From a virus (Duplodnaviria; Caudoviricetes), in the IMG/VR virus record IMGVR_UViG_3300021400_000262, positions 1-64,000 of that record: a stretch of DNA of 64,000 nucleotides. One strand, given 5' to 3'. How positions within the stretch are numbered: the stretch's first letter is position 1; every line of letters begins with the position of its first letter. This document shows, in pieces, positions 3,243 to 26,414 of the stretch. Below the pieces are notes generated by a model. That model was given only the letters and a program-made list of their open reading frames with translations, was not told the DNA's origin and searched no databases. The translations under genes were made by a program, and so were the position numbers.

Positions 3243-3410
3243 TCATTCTTCTTCATATATATATAAAAGACAATATATAGCTGCATAAAGATTAACAACT
3301 TTCATATAAGTAATTGGATGGATAATTACCATAATTAAGAAAAAAATAAATAATATTAAATAATAAAAATTTATTTTTTTATAATTTTCTTTTATAAAAG
3401 TTAAAATCAT
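3243..3410 (-). CDS. small membrane protein (55 aa)
   Basis: Hydrophobic ORF MILTFIKENYKKINFYYLILFIFFLIMVII... with RBS, ends TGA. Confidence 0.55.
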   Translation of the reverse strand: MILTFIKENYKKINFYYLILFIFFLIMVIIHPITYMKVVNLYAAIYCLLYIYEEE

Positions 3411-8668: not shown

Positions 8669-8741
8669 AAGAACACACCTCATTTTTTATTTTCTATATA
8701 TATTATAATAAAAATTTTTAAAAAAATCAATGGCGCCCTTT

Positions 8742-13778: not shown

Positions 13779-14438
13779 TATGGCCCCCCCGATTTGTTTT
13801 CCTTCTACTTACTATGAATTTTATTACTATATAAAAAATCTACTTTGTCCAAACAGGAAAAAATTTTCGTTCGGCGGTCCGCATTTATATATTAGGTGTT
13901 TCTGCGCCGCGGGCGTTATTATTGTTACCCCCTATTATTATAGTATAAAAAATTTATAAAGTCAATGGTTCTGCGCGACGACCGCCAGTTGCAATAGAAA
14001 GATCGGCATATGCGATCTCCGCCCGTTGCGGCCGCGCCGAGTTGTTTGAAAGGACTACCGAGCGGAGCGAGGAGACCCTATTTTCGGGAAAAATAAGAGC
14101 ATATGAGGGGGCCGCAGTTGCACTCGAAAAAAAGCCATATGGGGGTTTTTGCTGAAACTCGGCGCCTAACTGACGTCAGCGCGCCGTCAAACTTTAGTCC
14201 TTTAAAGCGTAACGCTTCAACGCGATGAGGCTCCGCCCGGGCGCAAAAATGAGGATTATTTATCCTCATCATCGCAAACATAATCATCATCTCGATCCCA
14301 AAAATAAGCGAAATCATCGCATTCATCAATGGGATCTGCATCAGGATACATTGTACAACATCCATCAGCACCAAAATAAGGGCAATCCCAAGCATTTGCA
14401 GGACAATAAATTTTTCCCATGTTATTTACCTCTCTTTC

Positions 14439-14690
14439 TTACCAAGTTGCAACGACAATCCAATTTTTAAGGCTACTTTTCCAGCCCTTATTCTGATATA
14501 AAACTCTGTGGTGCTGAGTATCAATACACCATTTCTGCATTTCTGCGGTTTCGGGATTAAATTTATCTCCATGCACGATAAAGAATCCTTCCGCAGTACA
14601 TTCAACTTTTGTAAAATTTTTTGGAATTACTGCTTGCACTTCTTCAAGGCTCATAGCCGCTAAAAAATCTTCCATGTCTCCGCTATACAT
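14439..14690 (-). CDS. hypothetical protein
   Basis: ORF track. Confidence 0.65.
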   Translation of the reverse strand: MYSGDMEDFLAAMSLEEVQAVIPKNFTKVECTAEGFFIVHGDKFNPETAEMQKWCIDTQHHRVLYQNKGWKSSLKNWIVVATW

Positions 14691-14692
14691 TT

Positions 14693-14941
14693 TTAACCCC
14701 CTAAATAAAGATTGATAAAATACAGATTTAAAATCACGCTTGCAAAATGCATCACAATTCCGTTGATGTGTCTATCGGAAGTGAAATCCTTGATAAGTCC
14801 AAAGACAGCAACAGCAAGCCCAAACCAAGCGACCGAAAGACCAAACCGCATAATTAATAAAACATTTATAACAGTGATAATAGCTCGAAGGTCATTCCAT
14901 TCAAACTCATAAGCTTTTTCAATCTTGAAAAAATCTCTCAT
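14693..14941 (-). CDS. small membrane protein
   Basis: Three hydrophobic segments. Confidence 0.7.
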   Translation of the reverse strand: MRDFFKIEKAYEFEWNDLRAIITVINVLLIMRFGLSVAWFGLAVAVFGLIKDFTSDRHINGIVMHFASVILNLYFINLYLGG

Positions 14942-15342
14942 TTTTATTTTTCCTCACACTTCTCTGTAAAAATACAAACTTCAGTATCTTCCGACCATTT
15001 TTCCCAAGCAATGTCAACGGCTTCATCTTCTGTTTTAGCTTCAATCTCTTCTTCAAGGTATTTTTCAATAATGATTTTGTATTTCATTTATTTATCCTCT
15101 TTTTCTTCCGTAATGAAATAATCTATTACGTTATGGCTTGATGCACGAAACATACTTTCCGCCTTAAGTTCTGCCTCATAATCAGTTTCAGCAACTACCT
15201 CGTATTCTATACACACAGTAACCAAGTACTTCTTCATTTTTTTTATCTCCTTTCTTTTTGTAATCTTATTATAACAAAAGATTTTTAATTTGTCAATAGT
15301 TTTTAAAAAAAATTTTTTCGCCCGGGCGCCAAGGGCATGAGG

Positions 15343-15987
15343 TCAGTTAGACCACACACCCTTTTCACAATTTGCATTTTTCGCCATACAAGCCTTAAAA
15401 ATTTCCTTCTCAATCAGCACATCCGCAAGCCCTGTGTGCGCTTCCTCAAAATCATTCTTTCCGCTAATGTATCTATAAAGGATTTCAGCGGTCAGCCGAG
15501 GCGAACCATTTTTTAAAGTATAACCATTTTCAGCGCAGAAAGCCTTGTAATCTTCATCATGCCCGAAGGTCTGTCTTGCCATCTTTAAGGTGTCCCAAAG
15601 TTCAACCCCATAAGGATAAAACCATCTGTCCGCAGACTTTGTAATGTATCTTTGTGAACGAGTACAAGACTTATAATCGAATCTCATGTTGTGCGCCATA
15701 ATTGCGCCAACCTTAAAAAATTTGCAATCCTTGCGAAGAACCTTCTTTACATTTTTAAACCAAGCCATTTTCCGCACACCATCCGCAACATCTTTCACAT
15801 ACTGCGGAATTTTATCAGCGAAAAATGCTTCTTTCATCAGTTCTTCATCACAGAACACATCTGCAACTACATAAGAACGAGTTTTCAGCACCTCACCTTC
15901 ATCATTGATTACCGCCCATCCGCAATCATAGACCATAGGGTCATCAAATCCATTAGTGGTTTCCGTATCAATAACAATATAATTCAT
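15343..15987 (-). CDS. DEDDh 3'-5' exonuclease
   Basis: IDTET (ExoI), AHNMRFD (ExoII), AHTGLADV (ExoIII). Confidence 0.88.
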   Translation of the reverse strand: MNYIVIDTETTNGFDDPMVYDCGWAVINDEGEVLKTRSYVVADVFCDEELMKEAFFADKIPQYVKDVADGVRKMAWFKNVKKVLRKDCKFFKVGAIMAHNMRFDYKSCTRSQRYITKSADRWFYPYGVELWDTLKMARQTFGHDEDYKAFCAENGYTLKNGSPRLTAEILYRYISGKNDFEEAHTGLADVLIEKEIFKACMAKNANCEKGVWSN

Positions 15988-16333
15988 GTTCTTAGTTTGA
16001 CCTCTCTTTCATTTGATAGCTTTATTATAACAGATTTTATATTTTTTGTCAATAGTTTATTTTGCTAAAACAAGAGCAATAATAAAAGTAATGACAAGAA
16101 TAAGAATACAAGATACTAAAGATACAGGATTCGGAAATATTTTATTTACAATAGCGAAAAGTAATACCAGCCACCACGCAATAGCCTTAAAGAAATACAA
16201 CATTTATTTTTCCCTCTCTTTCTTTTGGTAGCTTAATTATAACAGATTCCTATTAAAAAGTCAAGCTTTTTTGCAAAATTTTTGCAAAAAATCGCCCGGG
16301 CGCGCAAAAAAGCCCCACTTTAGGGGCTTTTTC

Positions 16334-16711
16334 TCAACTTTTTGGCGGTCTATGTTTCACCAAATTGATAGAATACTCATTTTTTCCCACTTTTAAGGTG
16401 ATTTCACGCTCTTTTTTAGCAATTTCTACGCAATAATCAGCATTTTCAGCTAAAAATTCCGCAATTTTTGCGATAATCTCAGCTTTTTCATCGTCAGGCT
16501 TGCGCTCACGCTTCGTAAAAGTATAAGTGCGCTTTCCAGTCTTGCGAGCGTCTTTTGTAGCCTTTTTCTGCTCTTCGGTCAAGTCCGCAGTCAACTCCTT
16601 CATTGACATTCTGTCAGTATCTGCATCGTCCATGATAACAGAGATAGCGTCCTCACGAGAGCAATCATACTTTGCCATGTATTCTGCAACTACCTTTTCA
16701 TCAATCTTCAT
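16334..16711 (-). CDS. hypothetical protein, paralog of 25385..25762
   Basis: Shared SREDAI..I..D...DRM and EREI motifs. Confidence 0.75.
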   Translation of the reverse strand: MKIDEKVVAEYMAKYDCSREDAISVIMDDADTDRMSMKELTADLTEEQKKATKDARKTGKRTYTFTKRERKPDDEKAEIIAKIAEFLAENADYCVEIAKKEREITLKVGKNEYSINLVKHRPPKS

Positions 16712-16820
16712 TTTGGTATCACCTCTCTTTCTGTATCTATACTATAACATAGAACGAAAAGAAAGTCAATAGTTTTTAATAGTTAATTTTTTGACAAAGC
16801 GCCCGGGCCAAAGTTGGGGC

Positions 16821-17294
16821 TTAACCCCAACCATTAACCTTGAAATAATGTCTTAATGCATCACAACACAATCTGTTTACTCGATTAACCCAAGATACAT
16901 GATTAACCATGTATTCCAAAGCCCACTTTGTAGCTTCTTCCTCTATTGGAAGATTAAAATAAGCATCGTTAATTTCTTTTGGGTCTTTTTCACAAAAACT
17001 TAAAAGTTTTCTAATAATTATCTCATTGTCAATTTCTTCTTCTGTAAAGTTTCTTAACGTATAGTGATGCCCAATCTCATGAAGAATACAGAAGGTAAAA
17101 TAGCTACTTCTCACATCAATGCCAAAAGTTTTGTCAATGTATTCGCAATGCGCTCTTGACAACCTATCCCAAAAGTAAGGAGTAAAAGATACCACGCTAT
17201 TGCTATACTCAAACCTCTCTCCGCAATAAGCGACAATTCCAAAATCTTTAAACAGCTTGTTAATCTTTCTTTCAAGAACCATCATTCCCTTCAT
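16821..17294 (-). CDS. HEXXH zinc metallopeptidase-like protein
   Basis: ILHEIGHH and downstream EEEA. Confidence 0.65.
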   Translation of the reverse strand: MKGMMVLERKINKLFKDFGIVAYCGERFEYSNSVVSFTPYFWDRLSRAHCEYIDKTFGIDVRSSYFTFCILHEIGHHYTLRNFTEEEIDNEIIIRKLLSFCEKDPKEINDAYFNLPIEEEATKWALEYMVNHVSWVNRVNRLCCDALRHYFKVNGWG

Positions 17295-17449
17295 TTCTTC
17301 TTACCTCTCTTTCTATTGAAGATTATAACACAAGATGGTTTATTTGTCAAGAGTTTTTTGAAAAAAGTTTGCGGCCCGGGCGACCCCCAAGGCAACTAGA
17401 CCTTGGGGGCGACCAAAGAGAGAAAGGAGATCGAAAAAAGTCAGTAAAA

Positions 17450-17541
17450 TGGGGGGATGGGACTTGCACCCATCTTCCCAAGAATTATGTAGGGGCTATT
17501 ATGCAAATTACCTACCACTTGGGCTTCACTATAAACCCCCC
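17450..17541 (-). ncRNA. tRNA-like element lacking D stem and anticodon
   Basis: GGGGGG/CCCCCC-A acceptor-like stem; ATGGG-TGCAAGT-CCCAT T arm; internal CCCAAG/CTTGGG and GTAGG/CCTAC helices. Confidence 0.45.
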
Positions 17542-17570
17542 AAAGGGGGAGGGGCAAAAGCCCCTCAACA

Positions 17571-17912
17571 TCACGCCTTGGAGAAGTAAGCCTTGCGCTT
17601 CACTTCCTCACGGACAAGCAGACCATCAAGCTGCATCTGCCGAACGAGAGCGGAAACCCTCTGATTAGAAAGCTCACTCACCGCAGGAACAGCCTTCATA
17701 ATCTCGGTGATGGTATACTTGCCATCCCCGATACCCTCAAGGATTGCATCCTTAAAACCAGCGTTTTCCTTCTGCGTAGCAGTAGGCTTCCGCTCACCGC
17801 TTGACTTCTTAGCGAGCTGTGCCTTGAGAGCAGTCAGCTTATCAGCAACCTCACCCTCACCAACAGCCTTGATAGCAACATCCAGAGCAACAGCATAAGT
17901 CATCTTCGTCAT
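17571..17912 (-). CDS. winged-helix protein, MTKMTYA family copy 1
   Basis: KPTATQKEN linker; TITEIM..SNQRVSALVRQM..G...R...KRKAYF wHTH. Confidence 0.8.
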   Translation of the reverse strand: MTKMTYAVALDVAIKAVGEGEVADKLTALKAQLAKKSSGERKPTATQKENAGFKDAILEGIGDGKYTITEIMKAVPAVSELSNQRVSALVRQMQLDGLLVREEVKRKAYFSKA

Positions 17913-18093
17913 AATTAGCACCTCTTTCTTTTTTTTTGATTGATTTGTTTTTCTTATCTTGTGCCTTTATTATAGCACCCTTTTTTGTTTCTGTCAAGTA
18001 GTTTCTAAGATTTTTTTTCTTTTCTAAGACCCTCTCATTTTGTTTACCTCTTTTCTTATCTTGTGCCTTTATTATAGCAGATGTTTAATTGTT

Positions 18094-18166
18094 TGTCAAG
18101 AGGTTTTTGAAAAATATTGAAAAGTTTTTTAAAGCTCTTACAACTGTTTCTCATCTCCTCTTGACA
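18094..18166 (-). ncRNA. closed-stem sRNA cassette A
   Basis: Own promoter; UGUCAAGAGG...CCUCUUGACA terminal stem; no ORF. Confidence 0.55.
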
Positions 18167-18195
18167 TTTACAATTATAACACCATTTAAGAAGTT

Positions 18196-18299
18196 TGTCA
18201 AGGGGTTTCGAAGAATTTTTAGTCCGACTATTTATTCCTCTCGGACGGAAGCTTCACCGCCCTCGGACGTTGGTACGTCACTTCCGTACCCCCTTGACA
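18196..18299 (-). ncRNA. closed-stem sRNA cassette B
   Basis: Own promoter; UGUCAAGGGG...CCCCUUGACA; internal ACGGAAG/CUUCCGU and GACGU/ACGUC helices. Confidence 0.6.
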
Positions 18300-18605
18300 C
18301 TTATAAGTATAGCAGATTTTGGGAAAATTACAAGCCGTAATATTACACAAATAATTGCGGAAAAAATTAGTGAAAGTGCCTATTGACAAAAATAGGGCGC
18401 GCCTGGACCATGCGCGCCCGGCCGCAAATAAAAAAAGGAGATTATTCAATCTCCCTCTTGGAAATAATAAAAATCATTTTTGATACATTCACTTGCGAAA
18501 AAGCAAAGTTCATTTTCATGACACAATTCACAATGCTGGCACAAGTGGCTGTGTTTAATAACTTCAATTAAGAAATCATTCAGCTCTTTTTCTTTTTCTT
18601 TCTTT

Positions 18606-18851
18606 TCAGCAGTCATAAGTAAATTCTCCTACATACGGATCGAATCCGCAATCATCATCAATGTTATCGGGTTCAAAATCATAGTCACAAAAATTTTCAT
18701 TATCATACTGCATCAGAAAAATTTTGCTTCCTTCATGCTGTGCGGACAGCTCTCGTGCTTCCTCAAGGCTCGTGCAAGGAACACCTGCGAAAGAACCATC
18801 TTCCTTAACTACTGCGTAAAGCTCATCGAACCAATCAAAATCTCTTGCCAT
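18606..18851 (-). CDS. acidic hypothetical protein
   Basis: ORF track; C-terminal GFDPY.G.FTYDC. Confidence 0.7.
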   Translation of the reverse strand: MARDFDWFDELYAVVKEDGSFAGVPCTSLEEARELSAQHEGSKIFLMQYDNENFCDYDFEPDNIDDDCGFDPYVGEFTYDC

Positions 18852-18856
18852 TTCTT

Positions 18857-19033
18857 TTATCTCCTCTCTGTTGGAATCTCAAATTCTTCGGGTGTAAGTC
18901 CAGCTGAACTTTCCATAATGTAATCACAGTAATTTCCAAAAGGACATTCAGCACATTTTGCCCATTCAGTATTTTCTCCGCACGCTTCTTTTAAAAGAGT
19001 CATAGCAGTAATTATCTTTTCTTTCCAATCCAT
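18857..19033 (-). CDS. small Cys-rich protein
   Basis: Start MDWKEK after RBS; C..CPF...C. Confidence 0.65.
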   Translation of the reverse strand: MDWKEKIITAMTLLKEACGENTEWAKCAECPFGNYCDYIMESSAGLTPEEFEIPTERR

Positions 19034-19135
19034 TGTATTTTCTCCTCTCTCTTGATGGTTTAAGTATACCATAGGTGAGATTATTTGTCAATACTTTTTT
19101 GAAAAATTTTTGCGGCGGCCCGGGCAAAAGGCGGT

Positions 19136-19375
19136 TTAATCCGCCTCTCCTTCCACCAGTCTACCGAACAGCGCGCAAGTATATTTCCATTTATCATCAT
19201 TTTCAGCGATGAATTCATAATCTTTTTTTGAGAGGGGGTCAGGAATTCCGCCCATGATCCAGATCCAAGTCGTCCAGATTTCTTCATCCCCTAATCCAAT
19301 AATGTATTCAGTCATCTTCTTGAGTATCTTTATCCGTATCTGAACTAACTCCTTGTGAGTTATAATTACACTCAT
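19136..19375 (-). CDS. hypothetical protein
   Basis: ORF track, RBS. Confidence 0.65.
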   Translation of the reverse strand: MSVIITHKELVQIRIKILKKMTEYIIGLGDEEIWTTWIWIMGGIPDPLSKKDYEFIAENDDKWKYTCALFGRLVEGEAD

Positions 19376-19554
19376 TTTAATTCCTCCTTCTGGATTTCAC
19401 GCTGAAGTAAAAACTTGCCAATTCTTCTTGCTTTTCTTCTGAATCTTTTTTCGAGCTTATTTCTTGAGGGAGTGTGATAAACAACGTGCCTACAATTTAA
19501 ATCCCAACAAGTTAAATCGAAAGTTGTCAGTCTTTTAAAATAATCTTTAGTCAT
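19372..19554 (-). CDS. basic hypothetical protein
   Basis: Start MTKDYF after RBS. Confidence 0.6.
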   Translation of the reverse strand: MTKDYFKRLTTFDLTCWDLNCRHVVYHTPSRNKLEKRFRRKARRIGKFLLQREIQKEELK

Positions 19555-19686
19555 TTCTTTATCTCTCCTTTCTTGACTAAAGTATAACACATTTCCTTTT
19601 GGTTGTCAAGCACTTTTTTGCCCCGGGCAGAATCTGCGGGGAGAAAGGAGTTAGCCCGCAGATTCTTAGAAGAAAGGAAAACAAAC

Positions 19687-19759
19687 TCCGCCGAACGAGA
19701 TTCGAACTCGCGACTTACTGATTAAAAGTCAGTTACTCTACCAACTGAGTTATCGGCGG
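19687..19759 (-). tRNA. tRNA-Lys(TTT)
   Basis: CCGCCGA/TCGGCGG-A acceptor; ACTGA-CT TTT AA-TCAGT anticodon arm; GCGAG-TTCGAAT-CTCGT T arm. Confidence 0.93.
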
Positions 19760-20208
19760 TTAAGCGGACATTAGAGGAGTCCGCACCCTTCGTTTACGCA
19801 AACTGGCTTTTTCGGTTTTTCTTAACATGATAAACCTGTGGTAGCTTACACCTTACGATTTTAAAAATCCGACTCTTTCACCCATTTTTTCTTTCTTGCT
19901 GAAAAGGCTTAGTGTAGAATAGCCGTCACTTGCCAAAGTCGTGAAGCGTTTTACGTCCTCTCTTTAACTGACAAAGTTATTATAACATGGTTTTACATTT
20001 TTGTCAAGTATCTTTTTCATTTTTTTTCGGGAAGCGGTGGGTGGCCAGCTCCACCGCTTGTTTTCAATCTGTCCGCCATAGGGCGTATCTATCCCTACCT
20101 ACCACATTTTTGTCATCGCGCGCAAGGTCTCGCGCTTTCATCTAAAGTCCCATACTTGATTACCTCTCTTTCATCTTGTGGCTTTATTATAACACTCTTT
20201 TGGAAGTT

Positions 20209-20295
20209 TGTCAAGGGGTTTTTCAAAAATTTTTGAAAAATCGTAATCTTGTCGAACCTATTCTTCGAGGAGAGTTTCACTCCGTCCCCCTGACA
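20209..20295 (-). ncRNA. closed-stem sRNA cassette C
   Basis: Own promoter; UGUCAGGGGG...CCCCUUGACA with a G-U pair. Confidence 0.55.
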
Positions 20296-20401
20296 TTTAT
20301 TATTCTATCATAGCTCCTTTAAAAAGTCAACTACTTTTTAAAAAAATCTTTTGTTAGTTTTTTAACAAGCTAGCCCGGGCCAAAAAGCGCCGAAGCGCTT
20401 T

Positions 20402-20653
20402 TTAATTTTCCCATACAGGATTTCCTTCTTCGTCTAAAACTGAAGAAATTTCTGCATTTGCTTTATGCCAAAGAGATTTATTAAACTGCTTTGTCATAGC
20501 CTCTTCTATTGGTTCCCAAGTTTGAGGAGCAACAAGTTTAGCAAAATTTTCTCCAACAGTTAAATGAGATTTTCCTTTACAAGCTTTTAAAAAATCTTCA
20601 TTTGAAATTGGCACATCAAACTGGACATTGTAACAAACAGTAATTTTCTTCAT
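20402..20653 (-). CDS. hypothetical protein
   Basis: ORF track, RBS. Confidence 0.7.
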   Translation of the reverse strand: MKKITVCYNVQFDVPISNEDFLKACKGKSHLTVGENFAKLVAPQTWEPIEEAMTKQFNKSLWHKANAEISSVLDEEGNPVWEN

Positions 20654-20677
20654 CGTTTTTTTATCCCCCTTTTTTAT

Positions 20678-20989
20678 TTAATGATTAAATCTAATGTAAT
20701 GTTTAAACCAATTTTCTCCGAAGTATTCAATAAATTCTTTTTCATACTCTGGATAATTTTCAAGAACAGAAAGCTTCATGATTGTATCATGGTCAAGAAT
20801 TGTCCCCCAATCATTAGCTTTTTCTTCGCAACCCTTTGTAAATACAAAGTTGGTTAAAAGGGTGTCCATTGTTTTAGCGTTCTGAATAACTTCCATTGCT
20901 TCAGAAAGCCAAACAATCTGAGAACAAAAAATAGGGATAATGTTAAAATCAGATACTCTGGTTCCGCTCATTTTCGGTTCAAATTTCAT
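20678..20989 (-). CDS. hypothetical protein
   Basis: ORF track, own promoter. Confidence 0.7.
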   Translation of the reverse strand: MKFEPKMSGTRVSDFNIIPIFCSQIVWLSEAMEVIQNAKTMDTLLTNFVFTKGCEEKANDWGTILDHDTIMKLSVLENYPEYEKEFIEYFGENWFKHYIRFNH

Positions 20990-21087
20990 TGTATTATCTC
21001 CTTTCGATGGTTTAAGTATACCACGTTAAAGGTTGTTTGTCAATAGTTTTTTTAAAAAGTTTGCGGCTGCCCGGGGCAAAAAGAGGA

Positions 21088-21345
21088 TTACTCTTCTTCT
21101 GCTCCATCGTATTCAAAATAGGGGGATTCTGTTACGGTTTCAGACCAATCCGCAAGGCTTTTATCCTGTAAGTCTCCGACCCAATTCCAGAAAATTTCTT
21201 TTGCTTCTTCCTTCGTTTTTGCTTTTACTCGAACACATCCTAAAAAGTCAACAGCAAAAGTTTTTTTCTTTCTCATTTCTTTTACAAGATTTGCACACGC
21301 TTCTTCTTCTTCTTTTGTTAAAAGGTATCCTTTAATTTCTGCCAT
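21088..21345 (-). CDS. hypothetical protein
   Basis: Start MAEIKG; own promoter. Confidence 0.7.
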   Translation of the reverse strand: MAEIKGYLLTKEEEEACANLVKEMRKKKTFAVDFLGCVRVKAKTKEEAKEIFWNWVGDLQDKSLADWSETVTESPYFEYDGAEEE

Positions 21346-21477
21346 TTCTTTTTCCCTTTCTTTTTTTTCTTTCTTTTGATAAATCAATTATAATATACTT
21401 TCTTCTATTTGTCAATACTTTTTTCAAAAAATTTTTGCCCGGGCAAAAGCCCCCGAAGGGGCAAGCCCTTGGGGGCA

Positions 21478-21816
21478 TCAGCCCCCAATAGCCTTGAAGT
21501 AGGTGATACGCTTCTCGACCACCTTCTCGACCTTGCCATCATCAGCAAGCTGATTAACAAGTGCCGAAGCCTTCTGACCGCTAATGTCAAAATGCTTTGC
21601 TACATCACCTGCACGCTGTGCGCCATTCTCTGCGATGAAAGCAAGGATGGTTTCTTTCAGCTCTGCATTTTCCTTCTGAGTCTTAGTGGGCTTATGCTCA
21701 CCGCTGTTACGCTTTGCGAGCTGAACCTTGAGAGCCTCAAGCTTCTCACGAACCTCATCAGTGATGTTGCCATTAAGAGCGTTGTCGATTGCTACTGCGT
21801 AAGTCATCTTCGTCAT
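21478..21816 (-). CDS. winged-helix protein, MTKMTYA family copy 2
   Basis: KPTKTQKEN; RAGDVAKHFDISGQKASALVNQL..GKV wHTH. Confidence 0.8.
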   Translation of the reverse strand: MTKMTYAVAIDNALNGNITDEVREKLEALKVQLAKRNSGEHKPTKTQKENAELKETILAFIAENGAQRAGDVAKHFDISGQKASALVNQLADDGKVEKVVEKRITYFKAIGG

Positions 21817-22099
21817 TGTGTTTACCATTCCTTTCATTTTTAAGATTTTGTTTTTTTTCTTATCTTGTGCCTTTATTATAGCACTTCTTTATTCAGTTGT
21901 CAAGCTTTTTTTTTAATTTTTTTTGAGAAGTTGGAAGTTTGACTTCTCACCTTGCTCGTACTCATAGCGCCCCATGACTTCCGAGCTTTGGCGCCAATGG
22001 TCTTGCGACCTTTCCTGTTTTAAGTTTCCTTCGGCGGGTCTCTCATGTTCTCACCTCTCTCTCATCTTGTACCCTTATTATAACAGATGCTTTGGAGTT

Positions 22100-22182
22100 T
22101 GTCAAGGGGTTTTTTCAAATTTCTTTGATTATTTTTTTTCGAGGGCCATTAGGTTCTTGACCTCTTACCTCTCCCCTTGACA
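22100..22182 (-). ncRNA. closed-stem sRNA cassette D
   Basis: Own promoter; UGUCAAGGGG...CCCCUUGACA. Confidence 0.55.
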
Positions 22183-22270
22183 GTTATTATAATACCACAG
22201 ACCACAGAAAAAGTCAACACTTTTTTAAAAGTTATTTTTTTAACAAGTGGCGCCCGGGCGAAAAGCAAGA

Positions 22271-22714
22271 TTACTCTTGCTTCACCTCAATAACGATAGT
22301 CTTACAACTCATTTTACCCCATCCATAACTATAATATTCACTACTATAAACATTTACTTTGAAACAATGGGAATGTAAATAATCTACAAACTCTTCCCAA
22401 GCATAATTTTCTCCAATAGCGCTATAGGAAAGAGTTCCATCAGCGTATTTAGCGCCATCGGGTTTAACAAATTTAAATAACTTGTTTCCGAGTCGATCTA
22501 TTTCAAACTGAATCTGTGTCGTATACTCAATTTTTTTACGACTATACGCACAAGCAGTAAGTGCCTCATCTAAAATAGTATCACAAAACTCAATACTTCT
22601 TGCAGCTGCCGCTTTATAATATTTTCTTGCAATTTCGTCTTTTTCTGCTTCTTCTTTTTCCCACAGAATATCTGCTTCTTTCCTAACCATTGCTAATTCA
22701 AGCGCACATTTCAT
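22271..22714 (-). CDS. hypothetical protein
   Basis: ORF track, own promoter. Confidence 0.75.
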   Translation of the reverse strand: MKCALELAMVRKEADILWEKEEAEKDEIARKYYKAAAARSIEFCDTILDEALTACAYSRKKIEYTTQIQFEIDRLGNKLFKFVKPDGAKYADGTLSYSAIGENYAWEEFVDYLHSHCFKVNVYSSEYYSYGWGKMSCKTIVIEVKQE

Positions 22715-22838
22715 TTTTTTTACCCTCTTTCTTTTTTATTTTTTCTATTCCTTACATTTATTATTATAGCAGATTAAAAATAAAAGTCAACTACTTTTTA
22801 AAAGTTATTTTTTTAACAAGCGGCGCCCGGGCGAATAT

Positions 22839-23405
22839 TTAAGCGAGAGAAGTCCCGCTTAAATATTCGTTTACAACTTTATTAAATGTTCTTGTTGGAA
22901 TATCCACTCCAAAAAATCTATCATTTTTGCAAAAAGCTTCGGGATGCTTTCTAATAAAGAAAGCTCTTGTTACAGATTCCGCTCCTTCCGCAGGAATTGC
23001 TCCACAATCAATTACTGAACAAATTTCTGCATGGTCTATTACAATTCCATGATTAGTGTAGTATTTAATTTCTTCTTTAAGTCTCTGTTCAGGCAGTCTG
23101 GTTGTAGTTCCAACCTTTGAACAAATTAATTTTTCAGCTTCATAAAACTTATACAAATAAACTAACTGCTTTCCACCTTGTAAAACTTTTTTAACTTTCT
23201 GAGTCACATGGTAAAAAGTCTTTTTTGCAGTTTCTAATAATTCTGAATACTTTTTAATGTAAGTCTTGATAGTAGAAACTGCATAATCTGTCCATTTTGC
23301 AATTTCTTCGGGTGTAAATCCGTAGTCATTAAGATATACAAGCTGAAGTCTTTTTAACTGAGTTTCTTCAAATTTCTGAAATACATCAATTTTCTTTGTT
23401 GCCAT
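22839..23405 (-). CDS. HTH plus GIY-YIG-like domain protein
   Basis: TPEEIAKWTDYAVSTIKTY HTH; VYLYKF...SKVGTT...EQRL pattern. Confidence 0.55.
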   Translation of the reverse strand: MATKKIDVFQKFEETQLKRLQLVYLNDYGFTPEEIAKWTDYAVSTIKTYIKKYSELLETAKKTFYHVTQKVKKVLQGGKQLVYLYKFYEAEKLICSKVGTTTRLPEQRLKEEIKYYTNHGIVIDHAEICSVIDCGAIPAEGAESVTRAFFIRKHPEAFCKNDRFFGVDIPTRTFNKVVNEYLSGTSLA

Positions 23406-23520
23406 TGTTTTTAGCCTTCCTTTCTGTTGATGGTTTAATTATAACAGAAGGATTAGAATTTGTCAATGACTTTTTTATAATTTTTGAAAATTTTTTGGCC
23501 CGGGCGAAACATGAAGACCT

Positions 23521-23703
23521 TTAAAATGTCTTCATGTATTCTTCAAATTTATCAAGAAATTTACTTTCTTCCCAATAGAATGGGTCTCCGCACTCACTGA
23601 AAAAATTATACATCAGCTGACCAAAGCGCCAATCAGGACACTTATCTTTCCAATAGGAGCCAATAGTTTCAAGGAAAAAATCAATTCTTTCAGGATCTCT
23701 CAT
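23521..23703 (-). CDS. small hypothetical phage protein
   Basis: MRDPERI...W...PDWRFGQL. Confidence 0.75.
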   Translation of the reverse strand: MRDPERIDFFLETIGSYWKDKCPDWRFGQLMYNFFSECGDPFYWEESKFLDKFEEYMKTF

Positions 23704-23705
23704 CT

Positions 23706-23960
23706 TTAGTACGCCTCTCTATAATAATATTTAATCATGTTTAAAATCTGTTCTGCGGTGATGTCAAAGTCCCCAAAATCAAAATCTGGATTGTTGTCAA
23801 TCTTAATCAGTCTCTTAAAATCTGTTTCGATTCTGTCCACTATATCACGAATCTTCTGATTTTTTCTTCTTTCCATGACACATTTAATTGCTTTGGTAGC
23901 TTCGATTAACTCTTCATCAGTCCAATCATTTAATCCTTCAAAATCCACATTAGTCATCAT
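23706..23960 (-). CDS. hypothetical protein
   Basis: ORF track. Confidence 0.7.
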   Translation of the reverse strand: MMTNVDFEGLNDWTDEELIEATKAIKCVMERRKNQKIRDIVDRIETDFKRLIKIDNNPDFDFGDFDITAEQILNMIKYYYREAY

Positions 23961-24099
23961 TTTTTTTATTCCTTTCTTTTTTTTTGTATCTTTATTATAA
24001 CAAAATATTTTTTATTTGTCAATAGTTATCTTTAAGAATTTTTTTGCCCGGGCAAAGCCCCAAGGCTCCCAAAGGAGCCAAGGGGCTTTTGTTTTGGAA

Positions 24100-24447
24100 T
24101 CAAGCGAGGCTGAAATAAGCCTTACGCTTGATTTCCTCACGCTTAAGGATTCCGTCCAACTGCATCTGACGCACAAGTGCGCTCACACGCTGATTGGAAA
24201 GCTCCCCAACCTCGGGGACAGTCTTCATGATTTCAGTGATGGTATAAGCCTTTCCAGACTCCATCCCATTCACAATAGCTTCCTTGAAGCCGACATTTTC
24301 CTTCTGAGTAGCGGTAGGCTTCCGCTCTCCAGAACTCTTCTTTGCAAGCTGAGTCTTAAGAGCCTTAAGCTTCTCAATCACTTCCTCATTGTCGATAGCG
24401 TTGATAGCGAAGTCAATAGCAGTTGCGTAGGTAAGCTTGTTAGTCAT
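24100..24447 (-). CDS. winged-helix protein, MTKMTYA family copy 3
   Basis: Near-identical to 17571..17912 over the C-terminal two thirds; start MTNKLTYA after RBS. Confidence 0.8.
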   Translation of the reverse strand: MTNKLTYATAIDFAINAIDNEEVIEKLKALKTQLAKKSSGERKPTATQKENVGFKEAIVNGMESGKAYTITEIMKTVPEVGELSNQRVSALVRQMQLDGILKREEIKRKAYFSLA

Positions 24448-24524
24448 AAATTTGCACCTCTTTCTTTTTTGATTGATTTGTTTTTGTTTCTTACAGTAGT
24501 TATTATAACCGATATTTAGTTGTT

Positions 24525-24633
24525 TGTCAAGAGGTTTTTTCAAGATTTTTATTTGTTGGGGAAGTGGAAGCTGTGCTTACCGCGGATGCACATTTCTCAC
24601 TTTCTGAACTTCATCTCTGTCATCCCCCTGACA
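24525..24633 (-). ncRNA. closed-stem sRNA cassette E
   Basis: Own promoter; UGUCAGGGGG...CCUCUUGACA with two G-U pairs; internal AAGUG/CACUU and UGUGC/GCACA helices. Confidence 0.55.
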
Positions 24634-24728
24634 GTTATTATAATACCACAGACCAGAAAGAAAGTCAACACTTTTTTTATTTTTTTTCTTGTTAGTTTTT
24701 TAACAAGCGGCCCGGGCAAAAGGGGTTT

Positions 24729-24959
24729 TCACCCCTCTGCCGAATAAATTACTTTCATGTCACAATCTGTAATAAATTTTAAAACCAAATCATTATGACA
24801 GAAAGGACATACAACCGCATCATAGTATTCCCCATGTCCTACCATTACATCCCGCAAATCTTCATCATTACAAGTAAACACAGTATGGCAATGCTTGCAA
24901 GTAATTTCATACTTAGGAAGGCTTTTTCTACAATAACCCTTTTTAATAATCTTAATCAT
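24729..24959 (-). CDS. Zn-ribbon protein
   Basis: CKHC...CPFC. Confidence 0.7.
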   Translation of the reverse strand: MIKIIKKGYCRKSLPKYEITCKHCHTVFTCNDEDLRDVMVGHGEYYDAVVCPFCHNDLVLKFITDCDMKVIYSAEG

Positions 24960-25077
24960 GTTTTTAGCTCCTTTCTTTTGTTAATGCTATTATAGCAAAC
25001 AAAGAAGAAAAAATCAATAGTTTTTTTAAGTTAAATTTTTAACAATTTCGCATCCGGGCAAAAAAGAAGACAAGGAT

Positions 25078-25281
25078 TCAATCCTTGTCTTCAAGTCCAG
25101 CTTCCAAGATAATTTCGCCAGTATTTAAATCAATAACTGTAGCTGTATCAAAGCCATAAATTTTCATAGCATTGATAATTTCCGCTTTTAATTCATCAAT
25201 AGTTCCGACCTTATCATACTTAAACTGCCCATCAAAAAGAATCGTTGCGTCAATACGAGTTTCATAAGTAAAACAAATCAT
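25078..25281 (-). CDS. hypothetical protein
   Basis: ORF track; IDLNTGEI motif. Confidence 0.65.
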   Translation of the reverse strand: MICFTYETRIDATILFDGQFKYDKVGTIDELKAEIINAMKIYGFDTATVIDLNTGEIILEAGLEDKD

Positions 25282-25384
25282 TTTTATTACCTCTCTTTCT
25301 TTTTTGTAAGTTCATTATAACTCGTTCCAAAAGAAAAGTCAAGTAGTTTTTAAAAAAATATTTGCGGCCCGGGCAATCCCCGCA

Positions 25385-25762
25385 TTAACTGCGGGGAGCG
25401 GAAAGCACAACCTTGTATTTTACATTATTGAATTTAAAAATCATTTCTCGTTCAATATTTGTTATCTCAATGTCAGTTCCGCCGACCGCTTCAACGGAAG
25501 CCCGCAAGTTTTCAATCAGATTTCTTTTGTCTGGATTTTCTTTCTTTGGTCTTTTGGAAGTATCAAATTTAAAAACTGTTTTCTTTCTATCTGCTTTTCG
25601 AGCTTCTTTTGCGTTCTGAATCTGCTCTTTACTCAAATCAGAATTGATTTCTGAGGCTGATGTCATTCGATCAATTCTTTCATCCTCGTTAATTAAATTG
25701 ATTGCATCTTCTCTACTGAGTCCTAAAATTTCCATGTGTTTCTTAATTAAACTCTCATTCAT
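25385..25762 (-). CDS. hypothetical protein, paralog of 16334..16711
   Basis: Shared motifs with 16334..16711. Confidence 0.75.
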   Translation of the reverse strand: MNESLIKKHMEILGLSREDAINLINEDERIDRMTSASEINSDLSKEQIQNAKEARKADRKKTVFKFDTSKRPKKENPDKRNLIENLRASVEAVGGTDIEITNIEREMIFKFNNVKYKVVLSAPRS

Positions 25763-25837
25763 TTATTATCCCCCTTTCTGTTTATTATTATACCACAATA
25801 AACAGAAATGTCAAGTGAAATTTTGCCCGGGCGCCCC

Positions 25838-26272
25838 TTAGAAAGCTCTAAGGGTTGCCAAAATGTTATTTGCATCGAAAGAATTTTTTCCCCATTCGAT
25901 TCTATTATTTAATTCATCATCGAAAAGGAAACCATTTTTATCTTTTACAACTGTGCTTTTCGGCGTTCCGTAGGAAACGATGTGAATTTCATCCCAAACC
26001 ACCGAAGGCAGATGCTTTTTCAGCCAATTCATTTTGCTCTCTGTGACTGCCTTGTTATATTCTTCTGTTCCACTTTTGGAAAGCCAAGAAACAATTCCAA
26101 AAGTGAAACCAATTTTCTGCATTTTATGAATTTGTCTTGCGAAAACCGAAAAGTTGATTAAAGGCTTCGCTTCATCGTAAGGGCGAGTATTGCCATTGAT
26201 TAAATCATTAAGCCAGTTTTTTACGCCATACAGATTAGCGATTGTTCCGTCCATGTCAAAATAGATAGTCAT
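25838..26272 (-). CDS. HAD-family 5'(3')-nucleotidase-like protein
   Basis: FDMDGTIA motif I; K..WL.KHLP; LFDD. Confidence 0.8.
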   Translation of the reverse strand: MTIYFDMDGTIANLYGVKNWLNDLINGNTRPYDEAKPLINFSVFARQIHKMQKIGFTFGIVSWLSKSGTEEYNKAVTESKMNWLKKHLPSVVWDEIHIVSYGTPKSTVVKDKNGFLFDDELNNRIEWGKNSFDANNILATLRAF

Positions 26273-26414
26273 TTGTTCTTTCCTCTCTCTTGTTTGTATA
26301 GACATTATAACCGATTATCGCTAATTTGTCAAGTAGTTTTTTATTTTTTGTAAATAAATTATAATAAAAATTTTTTAAAAAATCAAGTGCGGCCGCGCGC
26401 CCGGGCAAAAAAAT

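Follow-up and report, generated by a model that had tools for sequence, protein, structure and literature searches.

Large Gram-positive phages of the SPO1/SP82 type have multi-promoter early, or 'host-takeover', regions, and stable RNAs such as phi29 pRNA and 6S RNA are closed by a terminal helix between their 5′ and 3′ ends. Here we describe five cassettes in a 64-kb stretch of phage DNA (positions 1 to 64,000 of IMG/VR virus record IMGVR_UViG_3300021400_000262; hereafter the window), which is the first 64 kb of a 110-kb record estimated to be ~61% complete. Each cassette lies between two promoters and is bounded by inverted 10-bp arms, the 5′ arm standing at a predicted transcription start and the 3′ arm including the −35 box of the following promoter. 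The locus resembles SPO1/SP82-type regions in having dozens of very short genes with near-consensus host promoters and non-coding RNA elements between them; it differs in the pairing of a start-site arm with the next −35, for which we found no description in such phages.

Among the closest described elements are the promoter-early stem-loop (PeSL) cassettes of T4-type phages, which combine strong early promoters with stem-loops, some of them overlapping the −35, and which are concentrated in early regions of high plasticity, where they mediate the shuffling of modules (Arbiol et al. 2010, PMC2839356). Both systems have repeated strong σ70-type early promoters and a stem in a plastic early region of small genes, and in both the sequence between the repeats differs between close relatives. 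However, PeSL stems are local terminator or attenuator hairpins accompanied by protein-coding ORFan cargo, whereas the cassettes described here enclose non-coding folded RNA and lack a U-tract. Their arms are 53 to 89 nucleotides (nt) apart (42 to 193 nt in the wider family), with the 5′ arm at the start site of a second, upstream promoter, and their hosts are of the Clostridia type, in contrast to the enterobacterial hosts of PeSL phages.

A second comparison is with 5′-terminal stem-loops and Shine-Dalgarno (SD)-like 5′ elements, which stabilize mRNAs in Escherichia coli and Bacillus subtilis, including an mRNA of B. subtilis phage SP82; the ompA hairpin, the aprE and ermC leaders and the SP82 polypurine element are reviewed examples (PMC3997798, PMC7509114). 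The cassette helix likewise begins 0 to 2 nt from the predicted 5′ end, the 5′ arm is purine-rich and itself SD-like (AAGAGG, AAGGGG, AGGAGG), and minimal versions head ordinary mRNAs in related phages. Unlike these stabilizers, the cassette stem is long-range, encloses a variable structured domain and uses the next −35 as its 3′ strand, and stabilization is here a prediction.

Y RNAs and YrlA are also closed by pairing of their 5′ and 3′ ends, phage-encoded examples of Y RNA exist, and a canonical T-arm is found in the cargo of some relatives of our cassettes. The Ro-binding motif of Y RNA/YrlA, GNCGAAN0-1G near the 5′ end (Chen et al. 2014, PMC4201824), contrasts with cassette 5′ ends that read UGUCA(A/G)G(A/G)GG, with G-N-C-G-A-A in none of the five. 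The Ro60/TROVE family PF05731 has no match in the 110-kb, ~61% complete record, where control families did match, and T and D stem-loops are absent from the five window units, T-arm-like GGGTTCGAATCCC being present only in some relatives' cargo. Literature searches by arm sequence, and for phage tandem-promoter or tRNA-like RNAs, returned no description of the element, which is apparently a previously undescribed variant of promoter/stem-loop cassettes and 5′-terminal stabilizer stems.

Five cassettes between stacked early promoters

The window codes for a virion structural protein and for an endolysin-like protein that has choline-binding repeats, and it contains three tRNA genes; this is consistent with a large phage whose host is Gram-positive (Clostridia-type). 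From ~34.3 kb down to 15 kb all genes are very short and lie on the minus strand, and almost each one has a near-perfect σ70-type promoter of its own. There are ~45 early promoters between 15 and 34 kb, and the 19 that match the consensus at 12/12 positions between 15 and 28 kb are all on the minus strand. Because genes and promoters there share this strand, the cassettes must be read on it as well.

The motif CCYCTTGACA (at most one mismatch) occurs at 18 sites in the window, compared with 4.4 ± 2.2 in shuffled sequences, and none of 100 shuffles reaches 18. Ten of the 18 sites form five inverted pairs, designated U1 to U5 below and lying exactly where the original prediction, made from the letters of the window alone, had placed five units; the pattern TGTCARGRGG-N(40-110)-CCYCTTGACA finds no further pair in the whole record. 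On the minus strand each unit has the order σ70-type promoter, 6 nt, 5′ arm (TGTCARGRGG), interior of 53 to 89 nt, and 3′ arm (CCYCTTGACA). In all five, as had been proposed, the 5′ arm stands just after a −10 (TATAAT, TATACT, TAGAAT, TATTAT and TATTAT, each 6 nt before the arm), and the TTGACA of the 3′ arm is the −35 of the following promoter, which has a 12/12 consensus and a 17-nt spacer. The interiors of U1 to U5 (53, 84, 67, 63 and 89 nt) are mutually unrelated in sequence, again in line with the prediction. Cassettes and flanking promoters are as follows.

18094..18166, minus strand: cassette U1; 5′ arm TGTCAAGAGG (18157-18166), A/T-rich interior of 53 nt, 3′ arm CCTCTTGACA (18094-18103); A-U pair
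18196..18299, minus strand: cassette U2; 5′ arm TGTCAAGGGG, 84 nt, 3′ arm CCCCTTGACA; G-C pair
20209..20295, minus strand: cassette U3; 5′ arm TGTCAGGGGG, 67 nt, 3′ arm CCCCTTGACA; one G·U
22100..22182, minus strand: cassette U4; 5′ arm TGTCAAGGGG, 63 nt, 3′ arm CCCCTTGACA; G-C pair
24525..24633, minus strand: cassette U5; 5′ arm TGTCAGGGGG, 89 nt, 3′ arm CCTCTTGACA; two G·U
18306..18333, minus strand: promoter upstream of U2; TTGTAA, 16 nt, TATACT; the arm begins 6 nt past the −10
18173..18201, minus strand: promoter downstream of U2 and upstream of U1; TTGACA-17-TATAAT, 12/12
18071..18099, minus strand: promoter downstream of U1; 12/12; followed by a promoter at 17969-17997 and the gene for winged-helix paralog 1
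20302..20330, minus strand: promoter upstream of U3; TTGACT-17-TAGAAT, TG-extended
20186..20214, minus strand: promoter downstream of U3; 12/12
22189..22217, minus strand: promoter upstream of U4; TTGACT-17-TATTAT, TG-extended
22077..22105, minus strand: promoter downstream of U4; 12/12; followed by a conserved non-coding stretch of ~150 nt, a promoter at 21875-21903 and the gene for winged-helix paralog 2
24640..24668, minus strand: promoter upstream of U5; TTGACT-17-TATTAT, TG-extended
24502..24530, minus strand: promoter downstream of U5; 12/12; directly drives the gene for winged-helix paralog 3

U2 and U1 are in tandem, the 3′ arm of U2 doubling as the −35 of U1's promoter. Four of the five units lie upstream of winged-helix paralogs, as first noticed (U1 with U2, U4, and U5 precede the three paralogs), and U3 precedes a non-coding stretch and tRNA-Lys, with no winged-helix gene. 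On the plus strand no −10 follows the inverted TTGACA copies at a distance of 16 to 18 nt, which rules out divergent promoters.

In the minimum-free-energy RNA fold of the minus strand all five units form the 10-bp closing stem, with z scores from −2.5 to −4.4 (the latter for U1, closing stem included); when the plus strand is folded, U5 loses the closing stem.

Related cassettes and covariation of the arms

A search with the winged-helix protein retrieved three viral contigs (71%, 38% and 36% identity) that carry six, three and two cassettes with the same arms, and a scan of IMG/VR for the arm pattern matched more than 115 stretches, mostly in contigs of 20 to 240 kb. Because the arm pattern is expected by chance in very large collections, we filtered by promoter geometry, requiring a −10-like hexamer 4 to 8 nt before the 5′ arm and a −10 16 to 18 nt after the 3′ arm; the promoters also set the orientation. 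What remained were 127 oriented, non-redundant cassettes; they come from 76 sources, and 34 of these sources carry more than one. The sources are mostly uncultured phage contigs of 100 to 240 kb, together with contigs in gut and rumen Clostridia metagenome-assembled genomes (MAGs). The same pattern has at least 120 matches in bacterial genomes, and of 120 such matches only 14 have the phage promoter geometry and 106 do not, so the bare arm pattern is not specific without its promoter context. These 14 are in gut or rumen MAG contigs, mostly labeled Clostridia (Eubacteriales, Ruminococcus, Ruminococcaceae), and the other bacterial matches are chance occurrences or, in many cases, unrelated repeats resembling insertion sequences (IS) or miniature inverted-repeat transposable elements (MITEs), with longer inverted repeats such as TGTCAAGGGGACGGTTC.... 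Among 50,697 GenBank phage records, neither megablast of the 8-kb region nor tblastn of the winged-helix protein found a relative.

In 121 of the 127 cassettes the 5′ arm starts 5 to 6 nt after the −10, which from promoter geometry is the expected start site; upstream promoters match the −10 at five or more of six positions in 114 and are TG-extended in 97, and downstream promoters reach the same −10 match in 122, nearly always with a 17-nt spacer. The interiors (42 to 193 nt, median 71) start purine-rich (71% in the first 12 nt), contain one to three hairpins and finish with a UP-like tract rich in A (their last 20 nt are 79% A+T), and 25 to 27 cassettes are directly followed by another, as U2 is by U1. 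This architecture is non-random and widely conserved, and apparently undescribed.

We rejected an identity with the IS/MITE-like TGTCAAGGGGACGG... elements, which need inverted repeats of 20 bp or more, often iterated, and have no promoter geometry; the pairing of phage cassettes ends after 10 bp in 97 of 127 and reaches 15 bp at most, and they are flanked by a −10 and a promoter spacer instead of by target-site duplications. The unrelated repeat elements themselves occur in bacterial MAGs, mostly of Clostridia and Syntrophomonas (L133, L134, L136, L140, L146, L155, L165 and many more), where terminal inverted repeats of 20 to 25 bp, often iterated, start with the cassette's ten bases (TGTCAAGGGGACGGTTC...CCGTCCCCTTGACA), so that a likely IS or MITE ends in a TTGACA that faces outward.

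Most arm positions are almost invariant, leaving a single informative pair, 5′ position 8 with 3′ position 3. This pair is A-T in 55 cassettes, G-C in 54, G·T in 7 and A·C in 10 (mismatched total 17; Fisher p = 1e-17), extending to the whole family the alternation of A-U and G-C that had been noticed in the window. Kinship alone could yield such covariation, and we therefore used controls on cargo, protein and tandem junctions. Both arm types occur within single cargo families (L120 and L045 versus L094; L116 versus L122, L032 and L040; L012 versus L023), which implies at least three double switches. Moreover, L094 and L120 encode near-identical winged-helix proteins and have opposite arm types, so arm type is not a paralog-specific operator code. 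With the same cargo or protein accompanied by different arms, neither protein specificity nor simple descent explains the covariation.

Tandem arrangements show which partner an arm follows. Of 25 junctions, 23 have a 3′ arm that agrees with the 5′ arm of the cassette to which it belongs, 50 to 130 nt away, whereas agreement with the 5′ arm of the next cassette, only 28 to 29 nt away, is seen in 13, which is the chance level (p = 0.004). Only the own-cassette arms share an RNA started at the cassette's own promoter, and this choice of partner favors an RNA stem on the upstream-promoter transcript over a DNA site. At the site orthologous to U1 in relative G001 there is an ordinary leader (AAAGGCAC...) and GTCC-TTGACA, both arms having gone together. 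Minimal hairpins of the form TGTCAAGGGG-AAAA-CCTTGACA or similar occur directly after a −10 at predicted mRNA starts, with no −10 behind them (L117, reverse-complement position 3335; L130, 6599; L101, 7099); they head protein-coding mRNAs, and since no −10 follows, their TTGACA is only a stem strand. The cassette stem is extended by two to five further pairs, such as GAA...TTC, in 22 of 127 (mean 0.61 versus 0.41 ± 0.06 in re-paired controls), and it is present in the minimum-free-energy fold of 112 of 127 cassettes, or 102 when 60 nt of downstream context are included. Together these comparisons of sequence favor selection for pairing of the cargo-flanking arms on the transcript of the upstream promoter, and we consider it quite likely that an RNA-level stem is under selection.

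A proposed closed RNA module and its alternatives

The explanation we lean toward, with somewhat more than even confidence, is that the cassettes are early-transcribed RNA modules closed by a terminal stem and carrying exchangeable cargo. The host σ70/σA polymerase would start at the upstream promoter, at essentially the first base of the 5′ arm, and after the next −35 region had been copied the first 10 nt of the RNA could pair in vivo with its last 10 nt. The closed stem would make the interior, of 50 to 125 nt, a compact domain and bury the 5′-triphosphate end in a helix. In Firmicutes-type hosts such a 5′-terminal stem should block 5′-end-dependent decay (RppH, RNase J1, RNase Y), and the terminal helix should also halt 3′ exonucleases. 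Trimming back to the helix would yield a stable cassette-length RNA; otherwise the cassette would stay a stable leader domain. The 3′ arm would be used twice, as an RNA helix strand and, apart from 4 extra nt, as the −35 box of the strong promoter that follows, and the interior would be replaceable cargo drawn from many unrelated folded RNA families, some of them tRNA-like.

The cargo is indeed diverse. Family-wide the interiors fall into ~120 sequence clusters, mostly singletons, and their folds are more stable than those of dinucleotide-shuffled sequences (mean z = −0.9, p = 1e-15). U4 carries a member of the 'AGAGGTAAnAGG...CCTCGAAAA' family, and the U5 cargo family is common to L009 and L123. 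Two aligned cargo families have compensatory changes, one with a hairpin bearing the invariant loop AACUCGGUAAC, the other with a canonical tRNA T-arm (GGGUUCGAAUCCC) between two covarying hairpins. The cargo of L022 (11287-11411; a relative is in L127, minus strand, near reverse-complement position 8689) is a tRNA-like fold of ~100 nt with an acceptor stem containing G3·U70, a canonical T-arm and a 3′ ACCA; G3·U70 is the alanine identity pair, as in transfer-messenger RNA (tmRNA). A tRNA or tmRNA identity for the cassettes was nonetheless rejected, as neither ARAGORN nor Rfam (RF00005) finds a cloverleaf: no tRNA-like cargo is called a tRNA, and none is called within the cassettes of 10 related loci. 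Rfam searches at the gathering threshold (window), at E ≤ 1 (three relatives) and at E ≤ 5 (17.8 to 24.8 kb) returned only tRNAs and chance-level matches.

Comparison of U2 with its counterpart in G001 (one orthologous pair) shows the arms and promoters kept and the cargo replaced by an unrelated, tRNA T-arm-like RNA; recombination at the conserved promoters and arms is the probable route of cargo exchange. The proposal of a conserved scaffold with variable cargo has held up, in that the sequence of promoter, terminal 10-bp stem and next promoter is widespread and arm complementarity is probably under selection. The suggestion of antisense cargo has not, since a blastn-short search of the 110-kb genome with the five cargoes found only A/T-rich low-complexity matches. 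That the cassettes yield discrete small RNAs with functions of their own is a serious possibility to which we give a little less than an even chance. More tentatively, we speculate that they form a modular expression platform for exchangeable small RNAs, made at high level right after infection and with helix-clamped ends, whose cargoes, including the tRNA-like ones, might act in trans as host-takeover or anti-defense decoys or cofactors, maybe with the winged-helix paralogs, in an RNA-plus-protein arsenal swapped by arm recombination.

Several points weigh against the closed RNA module. The covariation concerns one arm position and the invariant rest says nothing about pairing; at other arm positions we found no covariation, variant arms such as TCTCTTGACA and CCACTTGACA being rare. 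The original prediction had also held that G-U is tolerated only on the transcribed strand: the window units do contain three G·U pairs, but across the 127 cassettes seven G·U face ten A·C, so that no wobble signature specific to RNA emerges. Sense and antisense interiors have equal z scores, making a strand test by thermodynamics uninformative. Most cassettes were retrieved by a pattern requiring both arms, so the counts are biased, although the tandem-junction control and the relatives found by protein are unaffected. For about 30% of the CCYC-TTGACA promoters in the loci we collected, no clear partner is seen on the 5′ side. A terminator scan found none at the arms on the minus strand, where loops of 53 to 89 nt are followed by tails that begin AAC, with no U-tract.

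An asymmetry at 5′ position 6, where a G (20 of 127) faces the fixed first T of TTGACA, can be explained by promoter constraint. We also rejected an intrinsic terminator as the identity of the element, as this needs a GC-rich, short-loop hairpin and a U-tract. With no terminator 3′ of the 3′ arm, polymerase probably reads on into the next promoter and gene.

Such read-through would also suit cis-acting leaders, in which the cassettes are only the structured 5′ ends of long mRNAs of the downstream genes, made from stacked promoters, with a stem that insulates or stabilizes and a cargo that has no function. One gene family follows 72 of 120 cassettes, minimal hairpins of the same sequence head ordinary mRNAs, and the 3′ third of the interior is the A-rich, UP-like tract needed by the next promoter. 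However, U3 precedes non-coding DNA and a tRNA with no protein gene, and cargo families are kept across distant phages with compensatory pairs and conserved loops, some of the cargo being tRNA-like with a canonical T-arm or 3′ ACCA. Furthermore, the downstream promoter is itself a perfect consensus, so most of the mRNA would be without the leader. We regard leaders alone as an unlikely but realistic account.

Alternatively, the arms could be inverted protein sites on DNA, for example for the winged-helix proteins, lying on the upstream start and the downstream −35 so that one repressor shuts both promoters, possibly by looping. These are classic operator positions (+1 and −35), the synteny with a winged-helix family of DNA-binding type is tight, and the arms are almost invariant even though the proteins are only 20 to 40% identical between phages. 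Independent half-sites should not covary, however, and the covariation is with the cargo-flanking partner and not with the nearest arm; near-identical proteins go with opposite arm types; stems sometimes reach into the interior with matching pairs such as GAA...TTC; and minimal hairpins exist without a promoter. Arm spacing varies from 52 to 133 bp, and its weak 10.5 to 11-bp periodicity (p = 0.01) fades to p = 0.14 after homologues are collapsed. Winged-helix proteins predicted to be dimeric usually bind compact palindromes, for which the region offers other candidates, such as GCCCGGGC. Operators of this kind seem to us improbable.

Slightly less credible is that the promoter-plus-stem repeats are recombination handles for modular shuffling, with pairing potential as a by-product. 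Close relatives do differ in cargo while arms and promoters stay, more than 100 cargo families lie between identical arms, and the literature describes PeSL elements as repeats of promoter and stem-loop by which genes of plastic early regions are shuffled (PMC2839356). But direct promoter repeats already give homology, which makes an inverted −35 copy at the start site superfluous, and partner-specific covariation and joint arm loss point to selection on complementarity itself.

The 6S-like sigma decoys and promoter-occluding R-loops of the original prediction are hardly credible. In their favor, the RNA helix does have a consensus −35 box sequence and the 5′ arm of the RNA could base-pair with the non-template strand of the −35 that follows. 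Against them, there is no Rfam 6S match even at E ≤ 5, and units of 73 to 109 nt with a 10-bp helix differ from a ~180-nt helix that contains a bubble resembling an open promoter. Sigma region 4 recognizes DNA in the B form and not A-form RNA, and a 10-bp A-form helix is implausible as a −35 DNA mimic; for a 10-nt R-loop at a −35 that has not melted no driver is known, and R-loops find no support in our analysis.

If the stem of the closed RNA module forms, the same ten bases serve as the −35 of one promoter and the closing strand of the previous promoter's RNA, and promoter-RNA-promoter units stack without terminators. The cassettes also represent a large uncatalogued set of predicted phage non-coding RNAs, with more than 100 cargo families in more than 70 uncultured phage contigs and no Rfam match. 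They are linked to a viral family of winged-helix proteins that comprises at least 6,486 clusters, and cassettes and protein genes alike stand under the strongest early promoters, the usual place of host-takeover and anti-defense functions. The arm sequences make it simple to search viromes for such RNAs, and the design could serve as a stabilizing, insulating part in Gram-positive expression systems.

Neighboring genes and other features of the early region

Winged-helix and tRNA genes near the cassettes are the following.

17571..17912, minus strand: winged-helix paralog 1, 113 amino acids
21478..21816, minus strand: winged-helix paralog 2, 112 amino acids from a start codon with a ribosome-binding site
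24100..24447, minus strand: winged-helix paralog 3, 115 amino acids
19687..19759, minus strand: tRNA-Lys(UUU), 3′ of U3 and of two further promoters

The three paralogs have weak MarR/TrmB/HTH_24 matches and belong to a family of ~115 amino acids whose members start with MTK..., carry a KPTKTQxENE-like motif and have a winged helix at the C-terminal end. This family supplies the first downstream open reading frame with a ribosome-binding site in 72 of 120 cassettes, so the association with winged-helix paralogs seen in the window is general. A physical partnership between cassettes and winged-helix proteins, which had also been raised, is only suggested, by synteny. Known sources of the family (those 6,486 or more clusters are defined at 90% identity) are essentially all viral, and its members are named only 'hypothetical' or 'predicted transcriptional regulator'. 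An AlphaFold model of paralog 2 (predicted local distance difference test score, pLDDT, 91.7) has three N-terminal helices and a winged helix whose structural neighbors are MarR-, SmtB- and Z-alpha-type domains, a generic result. A Z-alpha identity was set aside: the resemblance (root-mean-square deviation 1.2 Å) is generic, and in a by-eye alignment with ADAR1 Z-alpha the key Asn and Tyr are not conserved.

The only tRNAs called in the window by ARAGORN and Rfam RF00005 are tRNA-Ala, tRNA-Trp and tRNA-Lys, all outside the cassettes. Downstream of U4, a gene-free stretch of ~150 nt (21905-22076, minus strand; L006 3745-3925) is kept in relative G001 with a compensatory change in a terminal hairpin (GAGAAGT/ACTTCTC versus GGGAAGT/ACTTCCC), and it is probably another non-coding RNA. 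A comparable gene-free predicted transcript lies downstream of U3, at about 20010-20185.

Two further features concern the start of early transcripts. An initial transcribed sequence AAAGGCACAAGATAAGAAAA, or a near variant, is common to the promoters at 17969-17997, 18071-18099, 20186-20214, 21875-21903 and 22077-22105. Many other early transcripts start with TGTAAGGAAGAGG, and the cassette 5′ arm looks like a variant of such purine-rich leaders.

The palindrome candidate GCCCGGGC, mostly inside TTTGCCCGGGCAAA, has 16 copies in the 110-kb record, all of them within the window at 14235-26399. Each copy is located just 3′ of a gene's terminator hairpin and 5′ of the UP region of the next promoter, and the copies look like the G/C part of a PeSL-type stem, or like a palindrome to which a protein binds.

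Finally, a second class of promoters is set apart from the early TTGACA promoters; its A/T palindromic spacer, TTGATTtttttaaaaatttttatTATAAT, hardly varies, and its members occur on the minus strand at 77, 1635, 1720, 7043, 8730, 10044, 11557, 13615, 26386 and 35588. These promoters may form a temporally different, perhaps middle, set, and the 3′ part of the U3 interior resembles their spacer.

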